Assembly: GCA_022750115.1 (NCBI GenBank)
Contig: JAKIWI010000004.1
Location: 97,939 to 161,938, forward strand
DNA length: 64,000 nt
DNA from: Thermoplasmata archaeon
GTDB taxonomy: Archaea > Thermoplasmatota > Thermoplasmata > Lutacidiplasmatales > UBA184
Direction: 5' to 3'
A program made the position numbers and the translations under genes. Shown piece after piece: positions 3,427 through 45,088 of the stretch (position 1 is the stretch's first letter; every line of letters begins with the position of its first letter). Below the pieces are notes generated by a model. The model was not told where the DNA came from. It saw only the letters and a program-made list of their open reading frames with translations, and ran no database searches.

Positions 3427-4216
3427 GCGAGCGATCCCGCGCGGCCGAGGCCCGGCTCCAGAGCTGGTCGAACTCGTCCGCGAGCTCGGTCCAGCTGCCG
3501 ACGCTCGGGTATCGGACCTTCGGGATCGGTGCGAGAGGTTCGGTGAGCCTGAGGCGCGGCCGGCCCGTGAACCGCAGGAACGCGACGCCGGCCCGATCGG
3601 CGGCGACCAAGTCGGCCGGACTGTCGCCGATGTGCAGGAGCTCCGACGGGTGGACGCCGAGGCGTTCCGCGGCCCGGCGGATCGGGCCCGGGCTCGGCTT
3701 CGCGTCGGGACCGTCCGAAGAGATCACGACCGCGTCGAAGACTCGCCGCTCCCCGAGCCGCCGGAGCAGGGCGTGGGCTGCCTCGGGAGGTTCGTAGAGG
3801 ATGTTCGAGACCACGCCCAGACGAAGCCCCCGCCGACGGAGTCGCGCGAGTGCCGGTCGCAGGCCGGGGCTCCATCGAAGGCTCGCCGAGGCCAGTGCGA
3901 AGGCGATCGCGTGCCCGACCCGGTCCGGGGCCGGCCGAACTCCGACGAGCCGCTCGAGTTCGTCCGCCTGTTCGGCGAGCGAGACGGAGTGGCCCCTCGC
4001 CTCCCGGCGGCCCGCCCACTCCTCCATCGCTCGAACGTCCGACTCGGCCGCCCGTCGCGAGAGTCCGTGGGCGACGAGCGGGTCGATCCAGGCCGAGCGC
4101 CGGGCCCGCTCGTAGTTCCGCGGCCCGGCGCGGCTGAACGCGATGAGCGTGTGCCACAGGTCGATCGTCACGGCGCGGGGGACGAGACGCCCCCGGTCGG
4201 CCCGTTCGGGCCTCAC
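3290..4216 (-). CDS. HAD-superfamily hydrolase (phosphatase-like)
   Basis: 'VTIDLWHTL' motif I close to the N-terminus, 'VVSNIL', 'HIGDSPADLVAADRAGV' motif IV. GTG start at 4214-4216 overlaps the TGA of the upstream GT4 gene (GTGA). The listed ORF start at 4327 is read-through. Confidence 0.65.
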   Translation of the reverse strand: MRPERADRGRLVPRAVTIDLWHTLIAFSRAGPRNYERARRSAWIDPLVAHGLSRRAAESDVRAMEEWAGRREARGHSVSLAEQADELERLVGVRPAPDRVGHAIAFALASASLRWSPGLRPALARLRRRGLRLGVVSNILYEPPEAAHALLRRLGERRVFDAVVISSDGPDAKPSPGPIRRAAERLGVHPSELLHIGDSPADLVAADRAGVAFLRFTGRPRLRLTEPLAPIPKVRYPSVGSWTELADEFDQLWSRASAARDRSLRRGRSGPARPGPRAAVRAGESRPATPIAPRSRPTGRRRARRPRG

Positions 4217-10957: not shown

Positions 10958-11173
10958 TCAGGCGTTCTTCATCCGGGCGCGGGAAACGTACCCCTTCTTG
11001 TCGAGGAAGTACATGTACCCGTCCTCCCGAGTGACCTTCTCGGTCCCAACCTTCGCCTTCTTCCCCGACTTGTTCAACTTCGTGGGGGTTTTCCAAAGGT
11101 ACCCGTCCTTGCCGAGGTAGTACAGGTAACCCTTCTCGCGCTTGATCTGCTCCTTGCCGACTTTCTCCGCCAT
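10958..11173 (-). CDS. small lysine-rich protein with internal duplication (71 aa), candidate nucleic-acid-binding protein
   Basis: Two copies of the motif G-Y-[LM]-Y-[YF]-L-x-K-x-G-Y ('KGYLYYLGKDGYLW', 'DGYMYFLDKKGYVS'); 13 Lys of 71 aa; AT-rich islet; TATA-like box ~30 bp upstream of the second ATG (11173). Confidence 0.5.
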   Translation of the reverse strand: MAEKVGKEQIKREKGYLYYLGKDGYLWKTPTKLNKSGKKAKVGTEKVTREDGYMYFLDKKGYVSRARMKNA

Positions 11174-11230
11174 GTGAGGCGACCTCGTCGGCGACATGGA
11201 AAGCGCTCCTATTTGAATGTAGGGTCCGAC

Positions 11231-13389: not shown

Positions 13390-13477
13390 CGTCGGCCGGA
13401 GGGGCCGAGCGGCATAACGGCACCTCCGCGAGGACAGGTGAAAGGAGAAGTACCCGCCCCGGCCTCGACCGCCGCTC

Positions 13478-14593
13478 ATGGTCGACTGGGACGTCGTCGA
13501 GCGACGCCGCTCCAAGGGATGGGACTGGCAGCGGATCGCCGAGGACCCGAAGGTCGACTTCCACGCCGACGACAACGCGGGGGACCCGGGCCGGGCGCTC
13601 CGGGCGCTGTACTACCAGCGCCGCTCGAAGTCGCGGCGCCGTCCGTCGTCGGGCGATTCGGACGGATCGACCGACACCGAGCCCGAGAAGCGCTGGACGC
13701 TCGAGCGCATCGCGGCCGTTCTCGTCCCGCTGTTCGCAATCTGGTTCGTGATCGCTCTGTTCGTCCCCTCGCCGGTGGGGACGTTCGTCCCCGCGATTCC
13801 GTATCTCCTCATCCTGCTCGTCATCGCGGTCGCCGTCCTCGGCTACGCGCTCCTGCGTTCCGCCGACCGCTGGAACGTCGGCATCCGCAACAGCGTGGTC
13901 ATGGGCCTCGTGCTCGGCCTCGTGGTCGCGGGCGGTTTCGGCGTTGCGGCCCTCGTGAGCGGATGCCCGACCCTCTCCTCGGGGGCAACCGCGACCGCCG
14001 AGCCGATGTCGTTCGCCAAGGCCGGAAACCCTCTGTGGGCGGACAACGGCGCCCCCGTGTTCTTCTTCTACGGCTCGACCGCCTGTCCGTTCTGCTCCGC
14101 GTCGAGCTGGGCGATGGTGGTGGCGCTCGAGGCGTTCGGGACGCTCACCGGGACGGCCTACGATCGATCGAGTCCGACCGACACGTACCCGAACACTCCC
14201 GAGGTCGTCCTCTCCGGCGCAGCGCTCCAAAGCAAGTGGGTCGGCCTCGAGGTCGCCGAGTCGACCAACGACAACCAGATCACGGCGGCCGCGACGACGG
14301 GCTGCGTCCAGTCGGCCTACGTGAGCGCCTACGACGCCGGCGGGAGCATCCCGTTCGTGGTCATCGGCGGTCAGTATTACCACGTCGGCGCGATGGTGAA
14401 CCCCGCGAGCTTGCAGGGGCTCAGCGCGGGCCAGGTGCAATCGCAGATTAACAACCAATCGGGCGCCGCGTGGGACGCGATCAGCCCGACGGCGTTCCTC
14501 CTGGAGGCGTTCCTCGTCAAGGCGAACGGCGGCCAACCGGCGAGCATCGCCTCGAATAGCACGGTCGCGAACTGGCTCGGCCAGATCCGTTAG
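13478..14593 (+). CDS. membrane-anchored thioredoxin-fold protein (CPFC), paralog A; DsbA-like partner of VKOR
   Basis: Basic cytoplasmic N-term, three hydrophobic TM segments, then 'FFFYGSTACPFCSASSW' Trx-like active site; 371 aa. Confidence 0.7.
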   Translation: MVDWDVVERRRSKGWDWQRIAEDPKVDFHADDNAGDPGRALRALYYQRRSKSRRRPSSGDSDGSTDTEPEKRWTLERIAAVLVPLFAIWFVIALFVPSPVGTFVPAIPYLLILLVIAVAVLGYALLRSADRWNVGIRNSVVMGLVLGLVVAGGFGVAALVSGCPTLSSGATATAEPMSFAKAGNPLWADNGAPVFFFYGSTACPFCSASSWAMVVALEAFGTLTGTAYDRSSPTDTYPNTPEVVLSGAALQSKWVGLEVAESTNDNQITAAATTGCVQSAYVSAYDAGGSIPFVVIGGQYYHVGAMVNPASLQGLSAGQVQSQINNQSGAAWDAISPTAFLLEAFLVKANGGQPASIASNSTVANWLGQIR

Positions 14594-14600
14594 TCCGGCG

Positions 14601-15092
14601 ATGCGAGCGGAATCGGCCCATGCGGCCCTGCTGGTCGTCATCATCGTGGGCCTCGGGCTCGCGGTCTTCTCCGCCGTGGAGTCCCTCGACCCGTGGTTCC
14701 AGGGGGCCTGCTACGTCAACAAGGTCATTTCGTGCGGAGCGGTCGATTCGAGCGGCCACACGACGACTCTCCATGTCCAGGACTACACGATCGGGATCGC
14801 AGGCTTCCTCCTCCTCCTCGTCGTCGACATCCCGCTGTACCGGACGTGGCGCCTGGACCTGCTGAGAGCGCTCGTCGGCCTTTCGGCTCTCGGACTCGCG
14901 GTCAGCGCCTACTTCGCCTACGTCGAGCTAGCGATCATCCACGCGCTCTGTCCCGTGTGCTTCTCCACCTACGTCGCCGACGCCGCGGTCCTGGTCCTCT
15001 CGTTCTACCTGCTCCGCACCAGCCGTTCCGAGGAGCCTGACCCAGATTCCAAGAATCCGTCCAGCGACTCGGAGCCGACGTCGTCATCGTAG
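14601..15092 (+). CDS. vitamin K epoxide reductase (VKOR) homolog / DsbB-like
   Basis: Polytopic membrane protein; loop cysteine pair 'CYVNKVISC' plus 'CPVC' redox motif in a TM helix; starts 8 nt after paralog A. Confidence 0.75.
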   Translation: MRAESAHAALLVVIIVGLGLAVFSAVESLDPWFQGACYVNKVISCGAVDSSGHTTTLHVQDYTIGIAGFLLLLVVDIPLYRTWRLDLLRALVGLSALGLAVSAYFAYVELAIIHALCPVCFSTYVADAAVLVLSFYLLRTSRSEEPDPDSKNPSSDSEPTSSS

Positions 15093-15142
15093 ACGAGCCG
15101 ACCGGGGCGGGGGGACGCCTCGACAGCGCCGACGATCGGTGG

Positions 15143-15157
15143 GCCGTTAAGCCTCCG
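15143..15157 (+). promoter_or_regulatory. TATA-like box for thioredoxin-fold paralog B
   Basis: 'ggccgTTAAGCCtcc' ~30 bp upstream of ATG 15184. Confidence 0.35.
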
Positions 15158-15183
15158 CCGCCCTAGGGGCCTCGTTCATCCGC

Positions 15184-16296
15184 ATGGTCGACTGGGACAC
15201 CGTCGAGCGTCGCCGTTCGAGGGGATGGGATTGGGACCGGATCGCGTCGGACCCCCGGGTCGACTTCCACGCCGAAGAGGGGGCCGGCGACCCCGGCCGG
15301 GCGCTTCGTGCCATGTACTACCAGCGTCGGTCGAAATCCCGGCGCGGCCCTTCGGCCTCCGAACGCGGGGCCGGGAGCGACCTCGCGCCGGAGAAACGCT
15401 GGAACCTCGTGCGCGTCGCGGCGCTGCTCGCGCCGATGTTCGCCGCCTGGTTCGTCCTCGCCCTCGTGTTCCCCTCCCCGGTCGGGGCGTTCCTCTCCGC
15501 GATCCCCGTGCTCGTGATCCTGATGCTCCTCTCGATCGCCCTGCTGGGTTTTGCGCTGCTGCGCACCGCCGATCGGTGGACCACGGGAGTCCGGAACAGC
15601 CTGGTCGTCGGGGCGGTCCTCGGGCTCGTGCTGGCGGGAATCTTCGGGCTCGCGGCGGTGGTCAGCGGCTGCCCGACCCTCACGGCCACGACCTCGCCGG
15701 AACCGTCCAACTTCGTCGTCGTGGCGAACCCACTCTGGGCCGACTCTGGCATCCCCGTGTTCTTCTTCTACGGGTCGATCGCGTGCCCGTACTGCGCGGC
15801 ATCGAGTTGGGCGATGGCCGTTGCGCTCGAGCAGTTCGGGACGCTCTCGGGGACCCACTTCGACCGGTCCTCGCCGACCGATGCTGCCGGCCCGAGCACG
15901 CCCGAGGTCGTCCTCGCCGGAGCGACGCTGCAGAGCCGATGGGTCAGCCTCCACGTCGCCGAGTCGACCGATAACCAGACGATCACGGCCGCCCCGACGT
16001 CGGGCTGCGTGGAGTCGGCGTACGTGAGCGCCTACGACCCCGGGGGAAGCATTCCGTTCCTCGTCATCGGCGGGCAGTATCTCCACGTCGGTGCACTCGT
16101 CGCGCCCGCGAAGCTCGCCGGGTTGACGCCGGCCCAGGTGCAGGCGCAGATCGCGAACCAGTCCGGCCCCGCCTGGGACGCCATCAGCCCGATCGCGTTT
16201 CTTCTGGAAGCGTTCTTGGTCAAGGTGAACGGCGGACAGCCCGCCAGCGTTGCGACGAACAGCTCGGTCGCCAATTGGCTGGGTCAGATCCACTGA
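15184..16296 (+). CDS. membrane-anchored thioredoxin-fold protein (CPYC), paralog B
   Basis: About 75 % identical to the 13478-14593 product, same topology, 'FFFYGSIACPYCAASSW'; own TATA-like box ~30 bp upstream. Confidence 0.7.
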   Translation: MVDWDTVERRRSRGWDWDRIASDPRVDFHAEEGAGDPGRALRAMYYQRRSKSRRGPSASERGAGSDLAPEKRWNLVRVAALLAPMFAAWFVLALVFPSPVGAFLSAIPVLVILMLLSIALLGFALLRTADRWTTGVRNSLVVGAVLGLVLAGIFGLAAVVSGCPTLTATTSPEPSNFVVVANPLWADSGIPVFFFYGSIACPYCAASSWAMAVALEQFGTLSGTHFDRSSPTDAAGPSTPEVVLAGATLQSRWVSLHVAESTDNQTITAAPTSGCVESAYVSAYDPGGSIPFLVIGGQYLHVGALVAPAKLAGLTPAQVQAQIANQSGPAWDAISPIAFLLEAFLVKVNGGQPASVATNSSVANWLGQIH

Positions 16297-43262: not shown

Positions 43263-43413
43263 CCACCGACGGTACGGCCTTCTTCCAGAAAGAACCGACG
43301 TTGGACCGGGGGGCCGGTCCCAGCCCACAACTGACGGTTCTCTGGGGGGGCCGCCGACCCCAAACGCGCCCCGCGCGACGCCCGACGCGATGCGACGGGG
43401 AGCCGGACGTCGG

Positions 43414-43990
43414 CTACCGGGGTCGGTTCGTCGATTTCGTCCGGGGCCGGAACTCGTTCAGGATGCGTCGGACCATCGGCCGAACCGACCGGAGGGTCCC
43501 GAACCGGTCCGCGAGCGCAACGGCCCCCCCGAGCCATTCCACGGGGGCTCCCTCGTCGAGGTCCCTCCGGATGCGGAGCTCGTACCGACGACCGTGCTCC
43601 CCGCGGACGTGGGGTCGGGTGTAGTCGACGATGGAGGGTCTGGCAACGCGACCCTGGGGCGTGTCCTGGGAACCTTCGGTCGCCACGAACTCGTAGAACG
43701 CCTCACCGCCGAAGGGTGCCGGGCTCCGAACGTCGCGGACGATGGTCCGACCGCCCGCCCGGCGGAGGTGCCCGTTGGTGAAGTGCCCGGGGTTCGAGAG
43801 TACCTCGATTCCGGCGCCGCGCAGAAACTCGACTTCACCGTATTCGGCTTCGGAGAGAACGACGTCGACGTCCTTCGTTCCGCCGAACCCGGCGGTCTCG
43901 ATGGCCAGGCCCCGATCAGGATGGGTTGCTACCCTTCGGCCCGGGGGCGCGCGAGAATCAGTTTCGCATCCTCGGGGGAGGCCCCTGCCA
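43414..43990 (-). pseudogene. protein-like ORF without canonical start; possible degenerate metallophosphoesterase-like remnant
   Basis: About 190 codons of normal composition ('...AIETAGFGGTKDVDVVLSEAEYGEVEFLRGAGIEVLSNPGHFTNGH...') with no ATG/GTG/TTG until GTG at 43686; begins directly after the stop of the 43994-44563 gene. Confidence 0.3.
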
Positions 43991-43993
43991 TGT

Positions 43994-44563
43994 CTACGAA
44001 CCTCGGGAGAATGCCCGGGAGTCCTCCACGGCGAGCGCGGCTGCGGAAAGGGGCTCGATTCCGGGGACTTTCGGAATCCCCGGAGCGAACTCGTCGAGCC
44101 GGACCCCGTAGGCTCGCCCCTCGAGGTCCTCGGCGAGGACTCGCTTCAGGAGGCGAATCGGGTCCAGGTCCCGTCGGTGACCGGAAGCGACACGGCGGGC
44201 GCCGAGCGCATCGATGGACAGCAGAGCGACGATCAGGTCCTCGAGCTTCGGGTCCCGAGCCGCCTCGATATCGGCCATCGGAAGGAGACGGTACGTCGTC
44301 TCGATCAAAGGGACAATCTGCTTCGGGGTCAGCAGCCGGGCCCGGAAGGAGAGTGGGTATCCGAGTTTCTCGATTCGTTCGGATTCGAGGAGGGAGATTG
44401 GAAGGCCGACCCGGCGAGCGGTCTCGACGTCCGTTCTCGAGCGGATCCGAACCGAGCGATACCGAGTCGGAGGTCGGTGCGAAACCCGGGATTCCGCGAT
44501 GAAGATCGACGGTGTCGCCGCTCGTGATCCCGGCTCCCGCCGGAACACTCCCTCGACGAACAT
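43994..44563 (-). CDS. hypothetical protein (189 aa)
   Basis: Genuine ATG at 44561-44563 with an AT-rich TATA-like block ~30 bp upstream (divergent promoter region 44564-44602); protein-like C-terminal two-thirds. Confidence 0.45.
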   Translation of the reverse strand: MFVEGVFRREPGSRAATPSIFIAESRVSHRPPTRYRSVRIRSRTDVETARRVGLPISLLESERIEKLGYPLSFRARLLTPKQIVPLIETTYRLLPMADIEAARDPKLEDLIVALLSIDALGARRVASGHRRDLDPIRLLKRVLAEDLEGRAYGVRLDEFAPGIPKVPGIEPLSAAALAVEDSRAFSRGS

Positions 44564-44602: not shown

Positions 44603-45088
44603 ATGAACTTAGCCGGACACTCCAAGAGGATTTCGTCCGAGTCGACGCCCGGCGTACGCCGAGTCTCCCCCGGCGATCTCGGCGGGGTCGCGTGGATGGC
44701 CACGGGCAAGGAACCTGCCGCAAACACGGAGCCGCTCCGAGACGAGACGCTTTATTCACGGCGCTTCGTCGTGGAAGGGATGGCGTGCACGTGCCGGTCG
44801 CCGGCCCGTTGCTCGGTGTGCAACACACCGGTCCGTGTCCCGCTCACCTACCTGGAGAGCGCGACCGGGGGGGCACTCATCGTCGACCGGTTCGCTCGGC
44901 GCGACTCGGCGACGAGCCGCGACGCGCTCTACCGGCTCATGCAGGGGTTCTGCCCGTGTCCCAGTTGCGGGAACACGATTCACCACAACCATAGCCGCAG
45001 TTGCGTTTCGAACGCCCTATCCGCCGCGGGCGTTCCGTCCCAGGAGCGCGAGATGATCCTCGCCAAGATCACCTTCCCGGAAGGGTGA
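44603..45088 (+). CDS. Cys-rich hypothetical protein (putative metal-binding), upstream of trpS
   Basis: 'CTCRSPARCSVCNTP' and 'CPCPSCGNTIHHNHSRSC' clusters; may start at the internal ATG (M32, ~44696); stop 11 nt before the trpS GTG. Confidence 0.45.
   Translation: MNLAGHSKRISSESTPGVRRVSPGDLGGVAWMATGKEPAANTEPLRDETLYSRRFVVEGMACTCRSPARCSVCNTPVRVPLTYLESATGGALIVDRFARRDSATSRDALYRLMQGFCPCPSCGNTIHHNHSRSCVSNALSAAGVPSQEREMILAKITFPEG

Follow-up and report, generated by a model that had tools for sequence, protein, structure and literature searches.

Three co-directional genes in a 64,000-nucleotide stretch of DNA from a Thermoplasmata archaeon (contig JAKIWI010000004.1; the whole stretch, of about 70% G+C, is called the window in the following) probably encode an extracytoplasmic disulfide-forming relay of the VKOR/DsbA type, in which proteins of the DUF929 family would, by analogy with the bacterial systems, play the role of DsbA. 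The middle gene is, by its sequence, a conventional member of the vitamin K epoxide reductase (VKOR) family, and the genes on either side of it, here called paralogs A and B, encode DUF929 proteins.

The three open reading frames (ORFs) were found with exactly the coordinates, sizes and + strand given in an earlier interpretation made from the letters alone (the sequence-only reading), together with all the motifs quoted there, namely CYVNKVISC (residues 37-45) and CPVC (residues 117-120) in VKOR, FFYGSTACPFCSASSW in paralog A and FFYGSIACPYCAASSW in paralog B. The core of that interpretation, a VKOR flanked by two paralogous, membrane-anchored thioredoxin-fold proteins acting in oxidative folding, holds, and the arrangement itself is confirmed. 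The flanking proteins are indeed paralogs, being 70-71% identical along their full length; at 70% amino acid identity and with a G+C of about 90% at third codon positions (GC3), synonymous sites between the two genes are saturated. The same three proteins, identical and in the same order, are encoded on a 3.7-kb contig of an NCBI metagenome-assembled genome (GCA_022750235.1) labelled Thermoplasmata archaeon, and close relatives of them carry the label Candidatus Lutacidiplasmatales. Lutacidiplasmatales are acid-soil archaea of about 69% G+C, aerobic or facultatively anaerobic and equipped with respiratory complexes III and IV (PMC9287336); the paper describing them makes no mention of VKOR, disulfides or thioredoxin.

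The DUF929-VKOR gene pair

In a scan of species-representative genomes, 80 loci from Thermoplasmata were recovered, 75 of which are informative, i.e. have enough flanking DNA. DUF929 is followed directly by VKOR on the same strand in 66 loci and has no VKOR next to it in nine, while in five the sequence ends just after DUF929. With dozens of related genomes showing it, the arrangement goes far beyond what chance would produce. The pairing is kept around a VKOR that is only 39% identical, and also in two loci with different surroundings (L088, L089). The usual neighbourhood, to which that of the window conforms, consists of amidohydrolase and RNase Z genes (both on the - strand), DUF929, VKOR, sometimes DUF169 (- strand), and genes of an A-type ATPase.

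In the window, 7 nucleotides (nt) separate the stop codon of A from the ATG of VKOR. The sequence-only reading had counted 8 nt and had proposed an operon; the count needs correction, whereas the operon link of A and VKOR is strongly supported by the conserved adjacency in 66/75 loci. The two genes are probably co-transcribed and, given the short gap, translationally coupled.

Upstream of A lies a purine-rich 18-nt element (table 1), which has counterparts in 76 related loci, located between -36 and -43 relative to the ATG, with the approximate consensus G-N-N-A-A-A-R-G-G-A-N-A-A-G-T-A-G. For 76 first-copy DUF929 genes the upstream AT content has a maximum between -40 and -26; no such peak precedes VKOR, which fits co-transcription of the pair from a promoter located before DUF929. 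A position weight matrix (PWM) built from these sites finds a single match in the window, the element of A itself, with about 0.9 expected by chance, so that the element is not a generic promoter motif of the genome; it is a candidate for the operon promoter (TATA-like, with a B recognition element, BRE) or for the site of a regulator.

Paralog B had been credited with a TATA-like box of its own, which was not borne out: the only AT element in the 91-nt spacer between VKOR and B is a weak GTTAAG at about -37 from the start of B, and the A-type element is absent, the best PWM score in the spacer being -8 bits. No terminator-like site was detected in this spacer by scanning and no T-run by reading its sequence, and transcription of B by read-through from A and VKOR is equally possible. 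A scan for sigma-70 promoters, uninformative here since the consensus is bacterial and the host archaeal, gave nothing promoter-like; the terminator scan, likewise based on a bacterial model, gave one terminator-like site, inside gene A, below the number expected by chance.

The identity of the middle gene as VKOR was confirmed by profile searches. The protein matches PF07884 with 68 bits (cut-off 27.5) over model positions 2-133 of 134, and the family profile aligns, with both Cys motifs in register, with solved VKOR structures, such as 6wv9 (vertebrate VKOR-like; 7e-10), 6wv3 (human VKORC1) and 4nv6/3kp9 (Synechococcus), these at about 1e-6. The score against the NCBIfam VKOR equivalog models is 39 bits, far under their cut-offs of 120-264. 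The residues C37, C45, S51, C117 and C120 are invariant in 68/68 orthologues, and position 54 is Thr in 66 of them and Ser in 2. The hydropathy profile contains four hydrophobic segments; Lys and Arg are concentrated in the N-terminus, in the loop between transmembrane (TM) helices 2 and 3 and in the C-terminal tail, and the loop that bears the Cys pair is net acidic. On account of this charge bias (the positive-inside rule) the redox sites are predicted to face outwards, as in bacterial VKORs. For so short a cytoplasmic tail, the first eight residues of the protein (14601-14624, MRAES-x-HA) show unusual conservation within the clade, and could form a contact site or reflect a constraint imposed by translational coupling with the upstream gene.

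The DUF929 proteins and their surroundings

Both flanking proteins score well above the cut-off of 24.6 for PF06053 (DUF929), A with 62.2 and B with 53.0 bits, the best match of the Pfam model covering about residues 179-250 and a second stretch being matched as well. For A, 595 homologues were retrieved, the top 120 being mostly full-length and in Thermoplasmata; the homologues bear a precomputed PF06053 label as well. An AlphaFold2 (AF2) model of A, calculated from an 88-sequence alignment with a mean predicted confidence (pLDDT) of 91.6, consists of a folded N-terminal domain, a disordered linker, three long helices and a C-terminal alpha/beta domain. The latter has the topology of a thioredoxin fold, i.e. 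a beta-alpha-beta ... beta-beta-alpha core with the CxxC opening helix alpha1, and an invariant Ile-Pro precedes strand beta3 at the classical cis-Pro position. All 85 of the DUF929 sequences compared have CP[YF]C as well as the cis-Pro. The thioredoxin-like domain with a CPFC or CPYC active site that had been read from the motifs is, thus, found with its fold, its active site and its cis-Pro.

Two further cysteines of the ectodomain are nearly invariant, namely C163, which follows TM3 directly within a G-C-P motif, and C276, located where helix alpha2 begins. Both are present in 76 of the 85 sequences and both are missing from nine, with no discordant case, a pattern consistent with a structural disulfide that would tie the start of the ectodomain to helix alpha2, and which implies that the domain folds in an oxidizing compartment. 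Lipidation of C163 was considered, as the sequence VSGC bears a superficial resemblance to a lipobox (a signal-peptide-like helix that ends in [LVI][ASTVI][GAS]C, the Cys being indispensable), and was rejected: many family members have N, Q or F at position -2, and C163 is replaced by Y or F in 9/85 sequences, always with loss of C276. C163 is, therefore, read as a disulfide partner rather than as a lipidation site.

The three TM helices anticipated from the sequence correspond to the three long helices of the AF2 model. Across the 85 members, the N-terminal domain, the linker and the TM2-TM3 loop are rich in Lys and Arg, the TM1-TM2 loop is uncharged and the C-terminal domain is acidic and poor in Lys and Arg, with a mean net charge of -8.6. 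A topology with the N-terminus inside and the C-terminal domain outside is predicted because the N-terminal domain and the TM2-TM3 loop are basic and the C-terminal domain is acidic; by charge bias, both the redox sites of VKOR and the CPxC domains are, thus, placed on the extracytoplasmic side, as had been expected. Furthermore, the experimentally determined secretome of Picrophilus torridus contains three DUF929 proteins (PMC8345856), which provides independent experimental support for the export of family members.

The N-terminal segment had been described simply as basic. It is rich in Lys and Arg, but it is actually a conserved and confidently folded domain without a known family, comprising three helices in the model of A (residues 4-12, 17-21 and 37-53), with W4, G14, W17 and G38 invariant and W15, R39 and R42 present in at least 90% of the sequences. 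No Pfam match to this domain was obtained even at E<=10. An exhaustive DUF929 profile search gave 1,828 representatives at 50% identity, 1,295 of them at E<=1e-10, and the combination of N-terminal domain and three TM helices occurs in only about the top 30 of the 1,828; matches to the N-terminal domain only were rejected as frameshifted, truncated or chimeric sequences. The other representatives share the CP[YF]C and (I/V)PF signature and are single-TM proteins. A large single-TM branch belongs to the Ktedonobacteraceae, and some of the records from the Joint Genome Institute (JGI) bear the annotation 'thiol-disulfide isomerase/thioredoxin'.

The designation 'DsbA-like' stands, by analogy, in its functional sense only. 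DUF929 gave no match to DsbA-type Pfam or NCBIfam models (including PF01323 and PF13462) at E<=1, and the helical domain that DsbA carries after the central strand and before helix alpha2 (alpha6 in DsbA numbering) is not present: there are only beta-strands at this site, and the extra helices are C-terminal. Membership of the DsbA family (PF01323/PF13462) is, therefore, rejected, as both sequence profiles and domain architecture fail to support it. On comparison, DsbA-type and TlpA/DsbE-type proteins score equally. DUF929 is a separate thioredoxin-fold family, a functional analogue of DsbA and not a member of its family. Its assignment to the thioredoxin-like clan, proposed with the aid of HHpred, dates from 2010 (PMC3091736), and no functional study was found in the literature that mentions DUF929.

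A second DUF929 gene follows VKOR in six other loci, in addition to L089. B is closer to its own neighbour A (70-71% identity) than to any copy of another genome (<=68%), and the same holds in other clades, where each second copy groups within the lineage to which it belongs, which indicates that the duplication arose several times; on these identities B is a lineage-specific duplicate. Both A and B keep every invariant, catalytic residue. Several bacterial DsbA paralogs can share one DsbB/VKOR recycling enzyme, and by analogy B is probably a second oxidant, different in substrate range or expression, fed by the one VKOR. An older clade of 'solo' DUF929 genes occupies the same slot among RNase Z, DUF169 and ATPase genes without a VKOR. 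In L089 (4001-6611), which belongs to a distant lineage, VKOR is flanked by two DUF929 proteins as well, the order being a 267-residue single-TM DUF929, VKOR, a 403-residue DUF929 and then A-type ATPase genes; one of the two partners has neither the N-terminal domain nor two of the TM helices. DUF929 copies split across reading frames were observed in L041 (7754-8919), L030 (6001-7106) and L048 (6001-7491), the second DUF929 copy of L041 being in three or four fragments; such copies are either assembly frameshifts or decaying duplicates.

Table 1. Features of the three-gene module, with positions in the window (lengths in amino acids, aa, or nt).
Feature	Positions	Strand	Basis or remark
Purine-rich 18-nt element GGTGAAAGGAGAAGTACC	13437-13454	+	ends 23 nt before the ATG of A
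DUF929 paralog A, 371 aa	13478-14593	+	ORF; PF06053 E=7e-17; AF2 pLDDT 91.6
A, N-terminal domain, aa 1-54	13478-13639	+	alignments; pLDDT ~90
A, three TM helices, aa 75-95, 106-127, 134-160	13700-13957	+	AF2, hydropathy, loop charges
A, thioredoxin-fold ectodomain, aa 161-371	13958-14590	+	
A, C163	13964-13966	+	
A, CPFC	14084-14095	+	
A, C276	14303-14305	+	
A, cis-Pro loop SIPF	14345-14356	+	
VKOR homologue, 163 aa, four TM helices	14601-15092	+	ORF; PF07884 E=1.2e-18
VKOR, loop Cys pair C37/C45	14709-14735	+	between TM1 and TM2
VKOR, loop Ser/Thr S51/T54	14751-14762	+	S51 68/68; T54 Thr 66, Ser 2
VKOR, CPVC (C117, C120)	14949-14960	+	start of TM4
VKOR-B spacer, 91 nt	15093-15183	+	weak AT element GTTAAG ~15146-15151
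DUF929 paralog B, 370 aa, architecture as A	15184-16296	+	ORF; PF06053 E=4e-14
B, N-terminal domain, aa 1-54	15184-15345	+	conserved as in A
B, C163	15670-15672	+	
B, CPYC	15784-15795	+	
B, C275	16006-16008	+	
B, cis-Pro loop SIPF	16048-16059	+	

Around the module, a DUF169 gene (PF02596; 16354-17085, - strand), with a conserved PSVCTFF motif, is convergent to it; the same holds for L031, L037, L038, L042, L056 and about 30 other loci, and DUF169 is also found directly after 'solo' DUF929 paralogs without VKOR. Between the ribonucleotide reductase and amidohydrolase genes lies an ORF (10959-11197, - strand) for a basic, Cys-free protein of 79 residues without a Pfam match, which contains two G-Y-[LM]-Y-[YF]-L-x-K-x-G-Y repeats and is conserved in syntenic loci (L031, L037 and L042, at about 3470-3700). 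A pair of ORFs at 43390-44502 and 44603-45088 (+ strand), of 370 and 161 residues, mimics the sizes of DUF929 and VKOR; as a second module it was rejected, having no match to Pfam, the DUF929 hidden Markov model (HMM) or the VKOR HMM and failing the GC3 frame test, and the two ORFs are probably spurious in this high-GC DNA. The sequence-only reading had also seen a fit between the module and numerous Cys-containing surface and secreted proteins elsewhere in the window, which the ORFs profiled do not support: the 23 further ones are cytoplasmic enzymes, repeat proteins and transporters, three being without a Pfam match. The Cys-rich large ORFs are those of a class II ribonucleotide reductase and of carbamoyl-phosphate synthase, and others include a ferredoxin, a major facilitator superfamily (MFS) transporter and a DUF420 membrane protein.

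The proposed relay and its rivals

In the proposed relay, the outward-facing CP[F/Y]C of DUF929, in its disulfide form, would oxidize Cys pairs in exported proteins; the loop cysteines C37 and C45 of VKOR, also facing outwards, would re-oxidize the reduced CPxC and hand the electrons to the CPVC at the outer end of TM4, from which they would pass to a membrane naphthoquinone and the respiratory chain. The three-helix anchor and the cytoplasmic domain may dock DUF929 on VKOR, making the pair the split equivalent of a fused VKOR-thioredoxin. The mechanism is modelled on the chemistry of the VKOR/DsbB-DsbA systems, e.g. Synechococcus VKOR-thioredoxin and M. tuberculosis VKOR/DsbA; the direction of electron flow, the physical contact of DUF929 with VKOR, the nature of the quinone and the substrates are inferred only. 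A bolder version takes DUF929 as the native DsbA equivalent of VKOR-bearing archaea, which would here form an obligate seven-helix complex with VKOR, docked through the N-terminal domain and the three TM helices, with the C163-C276 disulfide holding the thioredoxin domain over the Cys loop, as a split counterpart of VKOR-thioredoxin; it is put forward tentatively, and its being correct as a whole is considered rather doubtful. A further task of the cytoplasmic domain might be to link oxidative folding with a process in the cytoplasm or, via the upstream element, with the regulation of the operon.

No rival explanation fits the data as well as the relay. The fold class of DUF929 would be compatible with a reductant or isomerase, of the TlpA, ResA/CcmG, Sco or DsbC-like type, serving metallo- or haem proteins such as those with a CuA site, and in a regulator or counter-player relation with VKOR. 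VKOR, however, moves electrons from thiols to quinone, and is the wrong partner for a reductive pathway, which would use an electron importer of the CcdA/DsbD type; moreover, the tight and conserved pairing (66/75 loci) argues that the two proteins are direct partners, and no cytochrome or copper maturation genes are adjacent. The fold class itself leaves the direction of electron flow open, as M. tuberculosis DsbE and DsbF have the same fold and act as oxidants (PMC3853704), and, overall, such a role is judged improbable. A transmembrane redox sensor resembling ToxR, the N-terminal domain of which would relay the state of the envelope, VKOR or quinone and possibly act on the element upstream of its own operon, would account for the fact that the first 54 or so residues are as conserved as the active site and confidently folded, which would be needless in a simple anchor, and for the conserved, operon-specific 18-nt element; the restriction of the three-TM anchor and N-terminal domain to the clade with an adjacent VKOR would fit it too. 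It is, nevertheless, very unlikely: no match of the domain to a family of DNA-binding or signalling proteins was obtained, a 15-residue loop lies between its helices, unlike in a canonical helix-turn-helix, and the invariant CPxC, the cis-Pro and the translational-coupling distance to VKOR fit a catalytic partner better, so that sensing would add to the catalytic role of DUF929 and not replace it.

Archaeal VKORs are known in both orientations (PMC13486548), and a system that faces the cytoplasm and forms disulfides inside the cell, as does the inverted VKOR found in Aeropyrum pernix, is conceivable on that ground. It is at odds with the charge bias, which puts the redox sites of both families outside, with the strongly acidic, Lys/Arg-poor ectodomain and with the presence of DUF929 proteins in an experimental archaeal secretome (PMC8345856), and hardly any credence is given to it. 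Mere synteny, with DUF929 and VKOR functioning independently within a housekeeping block (amidohydrolase, RNase Z, A-type ATPase), can draw on the conservation of the whole neighbourhood, on the 'solo' DUF929 clade that holds the same slot without VKOR, and on the Ktedonobacteria, the DUF929 of which is not linked to VKOR. The two genes, however, lie on the same strand with gaps of from few to few tens of nt, a promoter-like signal is found before DUF929 only, and the pair remains intact where the surrounding genes differ (L088, L089). As the chemistries are complementary (a thiol oxidoreductase and a thiol:quinone oxidoreductase) and the predicted outside topologies match, independence of the two proteins is considered a very slim prospect.

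Several observations weigh against the relay itself. No DUF929 protein has been characterized so far, and the topology of both families rests on the positive-inside rule. Nine Thermoplasmata DUF929 copies have no adjacent VKOR, several of them being second copies, with a linked pair present in the genome besides. The nine double losses of C163 and C276 fall mostly in one clade and may represent one or two evolutionary events, and a distant single-TM variant (P0221) apparently keeps the equivalent of C276 without C163. When run against the PDB, the DUF929 profile reaches DsbA only as that of S. aureus, at E=0.6 and over 24 residues at the active site, and its hhalign comparison with E. coli DsbA gave a probability of 6% over 19 columns. 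VKOR is adjacent to DUF929 in 0/3 Ktedonobacteria loci and in 0/2 short single-TM forms, so that tight coupling to VKOR goes with the polytopic architecture.

Known systems and significance

The nearest known case is that of M. tuberculosis Rv2969c/Rv2968c (PMC3853704). There, as in the actinobacterial MdbA/VKOR systems and in the present module, VKOR stands in one operon beside a membrane-anchored thioredoxin-fold protein with a CxxC and a cis-Pro loop, the partner has an extra structural disulfide, as DUF929 would have, and both sets of redox sites are extracytoplasmic, as predicted here (PMC3853704). Unlike Rv2969c, DUF929 has no inserted alpha-helical domain and carries instead a beta-rich insertion and a C-terminal helical extension, and its anchor consists of three TM helices together with a conserved cytoplasmic domain, where Rv2969c has one N-terminal helix; moreover, the partner gene is duplicated here and the host is archaeal. 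The present VKOR has four TM helices, the actinobacterial enzyme five (PMC4555120). The fused VKOR-thioredoxins (Synechococcus, PDB 3KP9/4NV2; plant LTO1) offer an analogy in combining VKOR with a dedicated, membrane-proximal electron donor of thioredoxin-like type; in contrast to them, the two components are here separate polypeptides encoded by adjacent genes, the thioredoxin-like part having its own three-helix anchor, a length of about 210 residues and a different family. E. coli DsbA/DsbB follows the same proposed logic, in which a CPxC oxidant, soluble or tethered, is restored by a membrane enzyme that has two Cys pairs and is linked to quinone, although DsbB is unrelated in sequence to VKOR and DsbA has no significant sequence similarity to DUF929 beyond the active-site strand.

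Among archaea, the VKORs of the crenarchaeon Aeropyrum pernix, which occur in both orientations and are able to drive disulfide formation, are the only ones with functional data in the literature searched (PMC13486548). E. coli DsbA served as the surrogate partner in their tests, and that literature names no native archaeal partner; the VKOR described here differs in being predicted to face outwards and in having a conserved native neighbour. The literature search found no paper linking DUF929 to VKOR, and nothing combining 'vitamin K epoxide reductase' with Thermoplasmat*. The VKOR is conventional; what is new here is the partner, which comes from an uncharacterized family of thioredoxin fold and has a conserved cytoplasmic domain and a polytopic anchor, the latter being unusual.

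Extracytoplasmic disulfide formation is well understood in bacteria and not in archaea, and the module is a concrete candidate for a native partner of an archaeal VKOR. With about 1,800 clusters at 50% identity, DUF929 forms a large family with a redox motif and no assigned function, and it adjoins VKOR in nearly every genome of a widespread lineage of soil archaea. If the relay is confirmed, a function would be assigned to DUF929, and a third structural solution for the role of DsbA would be added, in which a thioredoxin fold without the helical domain is combined with a polytopic anchor. The repeated, independent duplication of the partner beside a single VKOR provides a natural system for the study of substrate specialization, and the relay, if true, would give a handle on the folding of surface proteins in acidophilic archaea, the surroundings of which disfavour spontaneous thiol chemistry.

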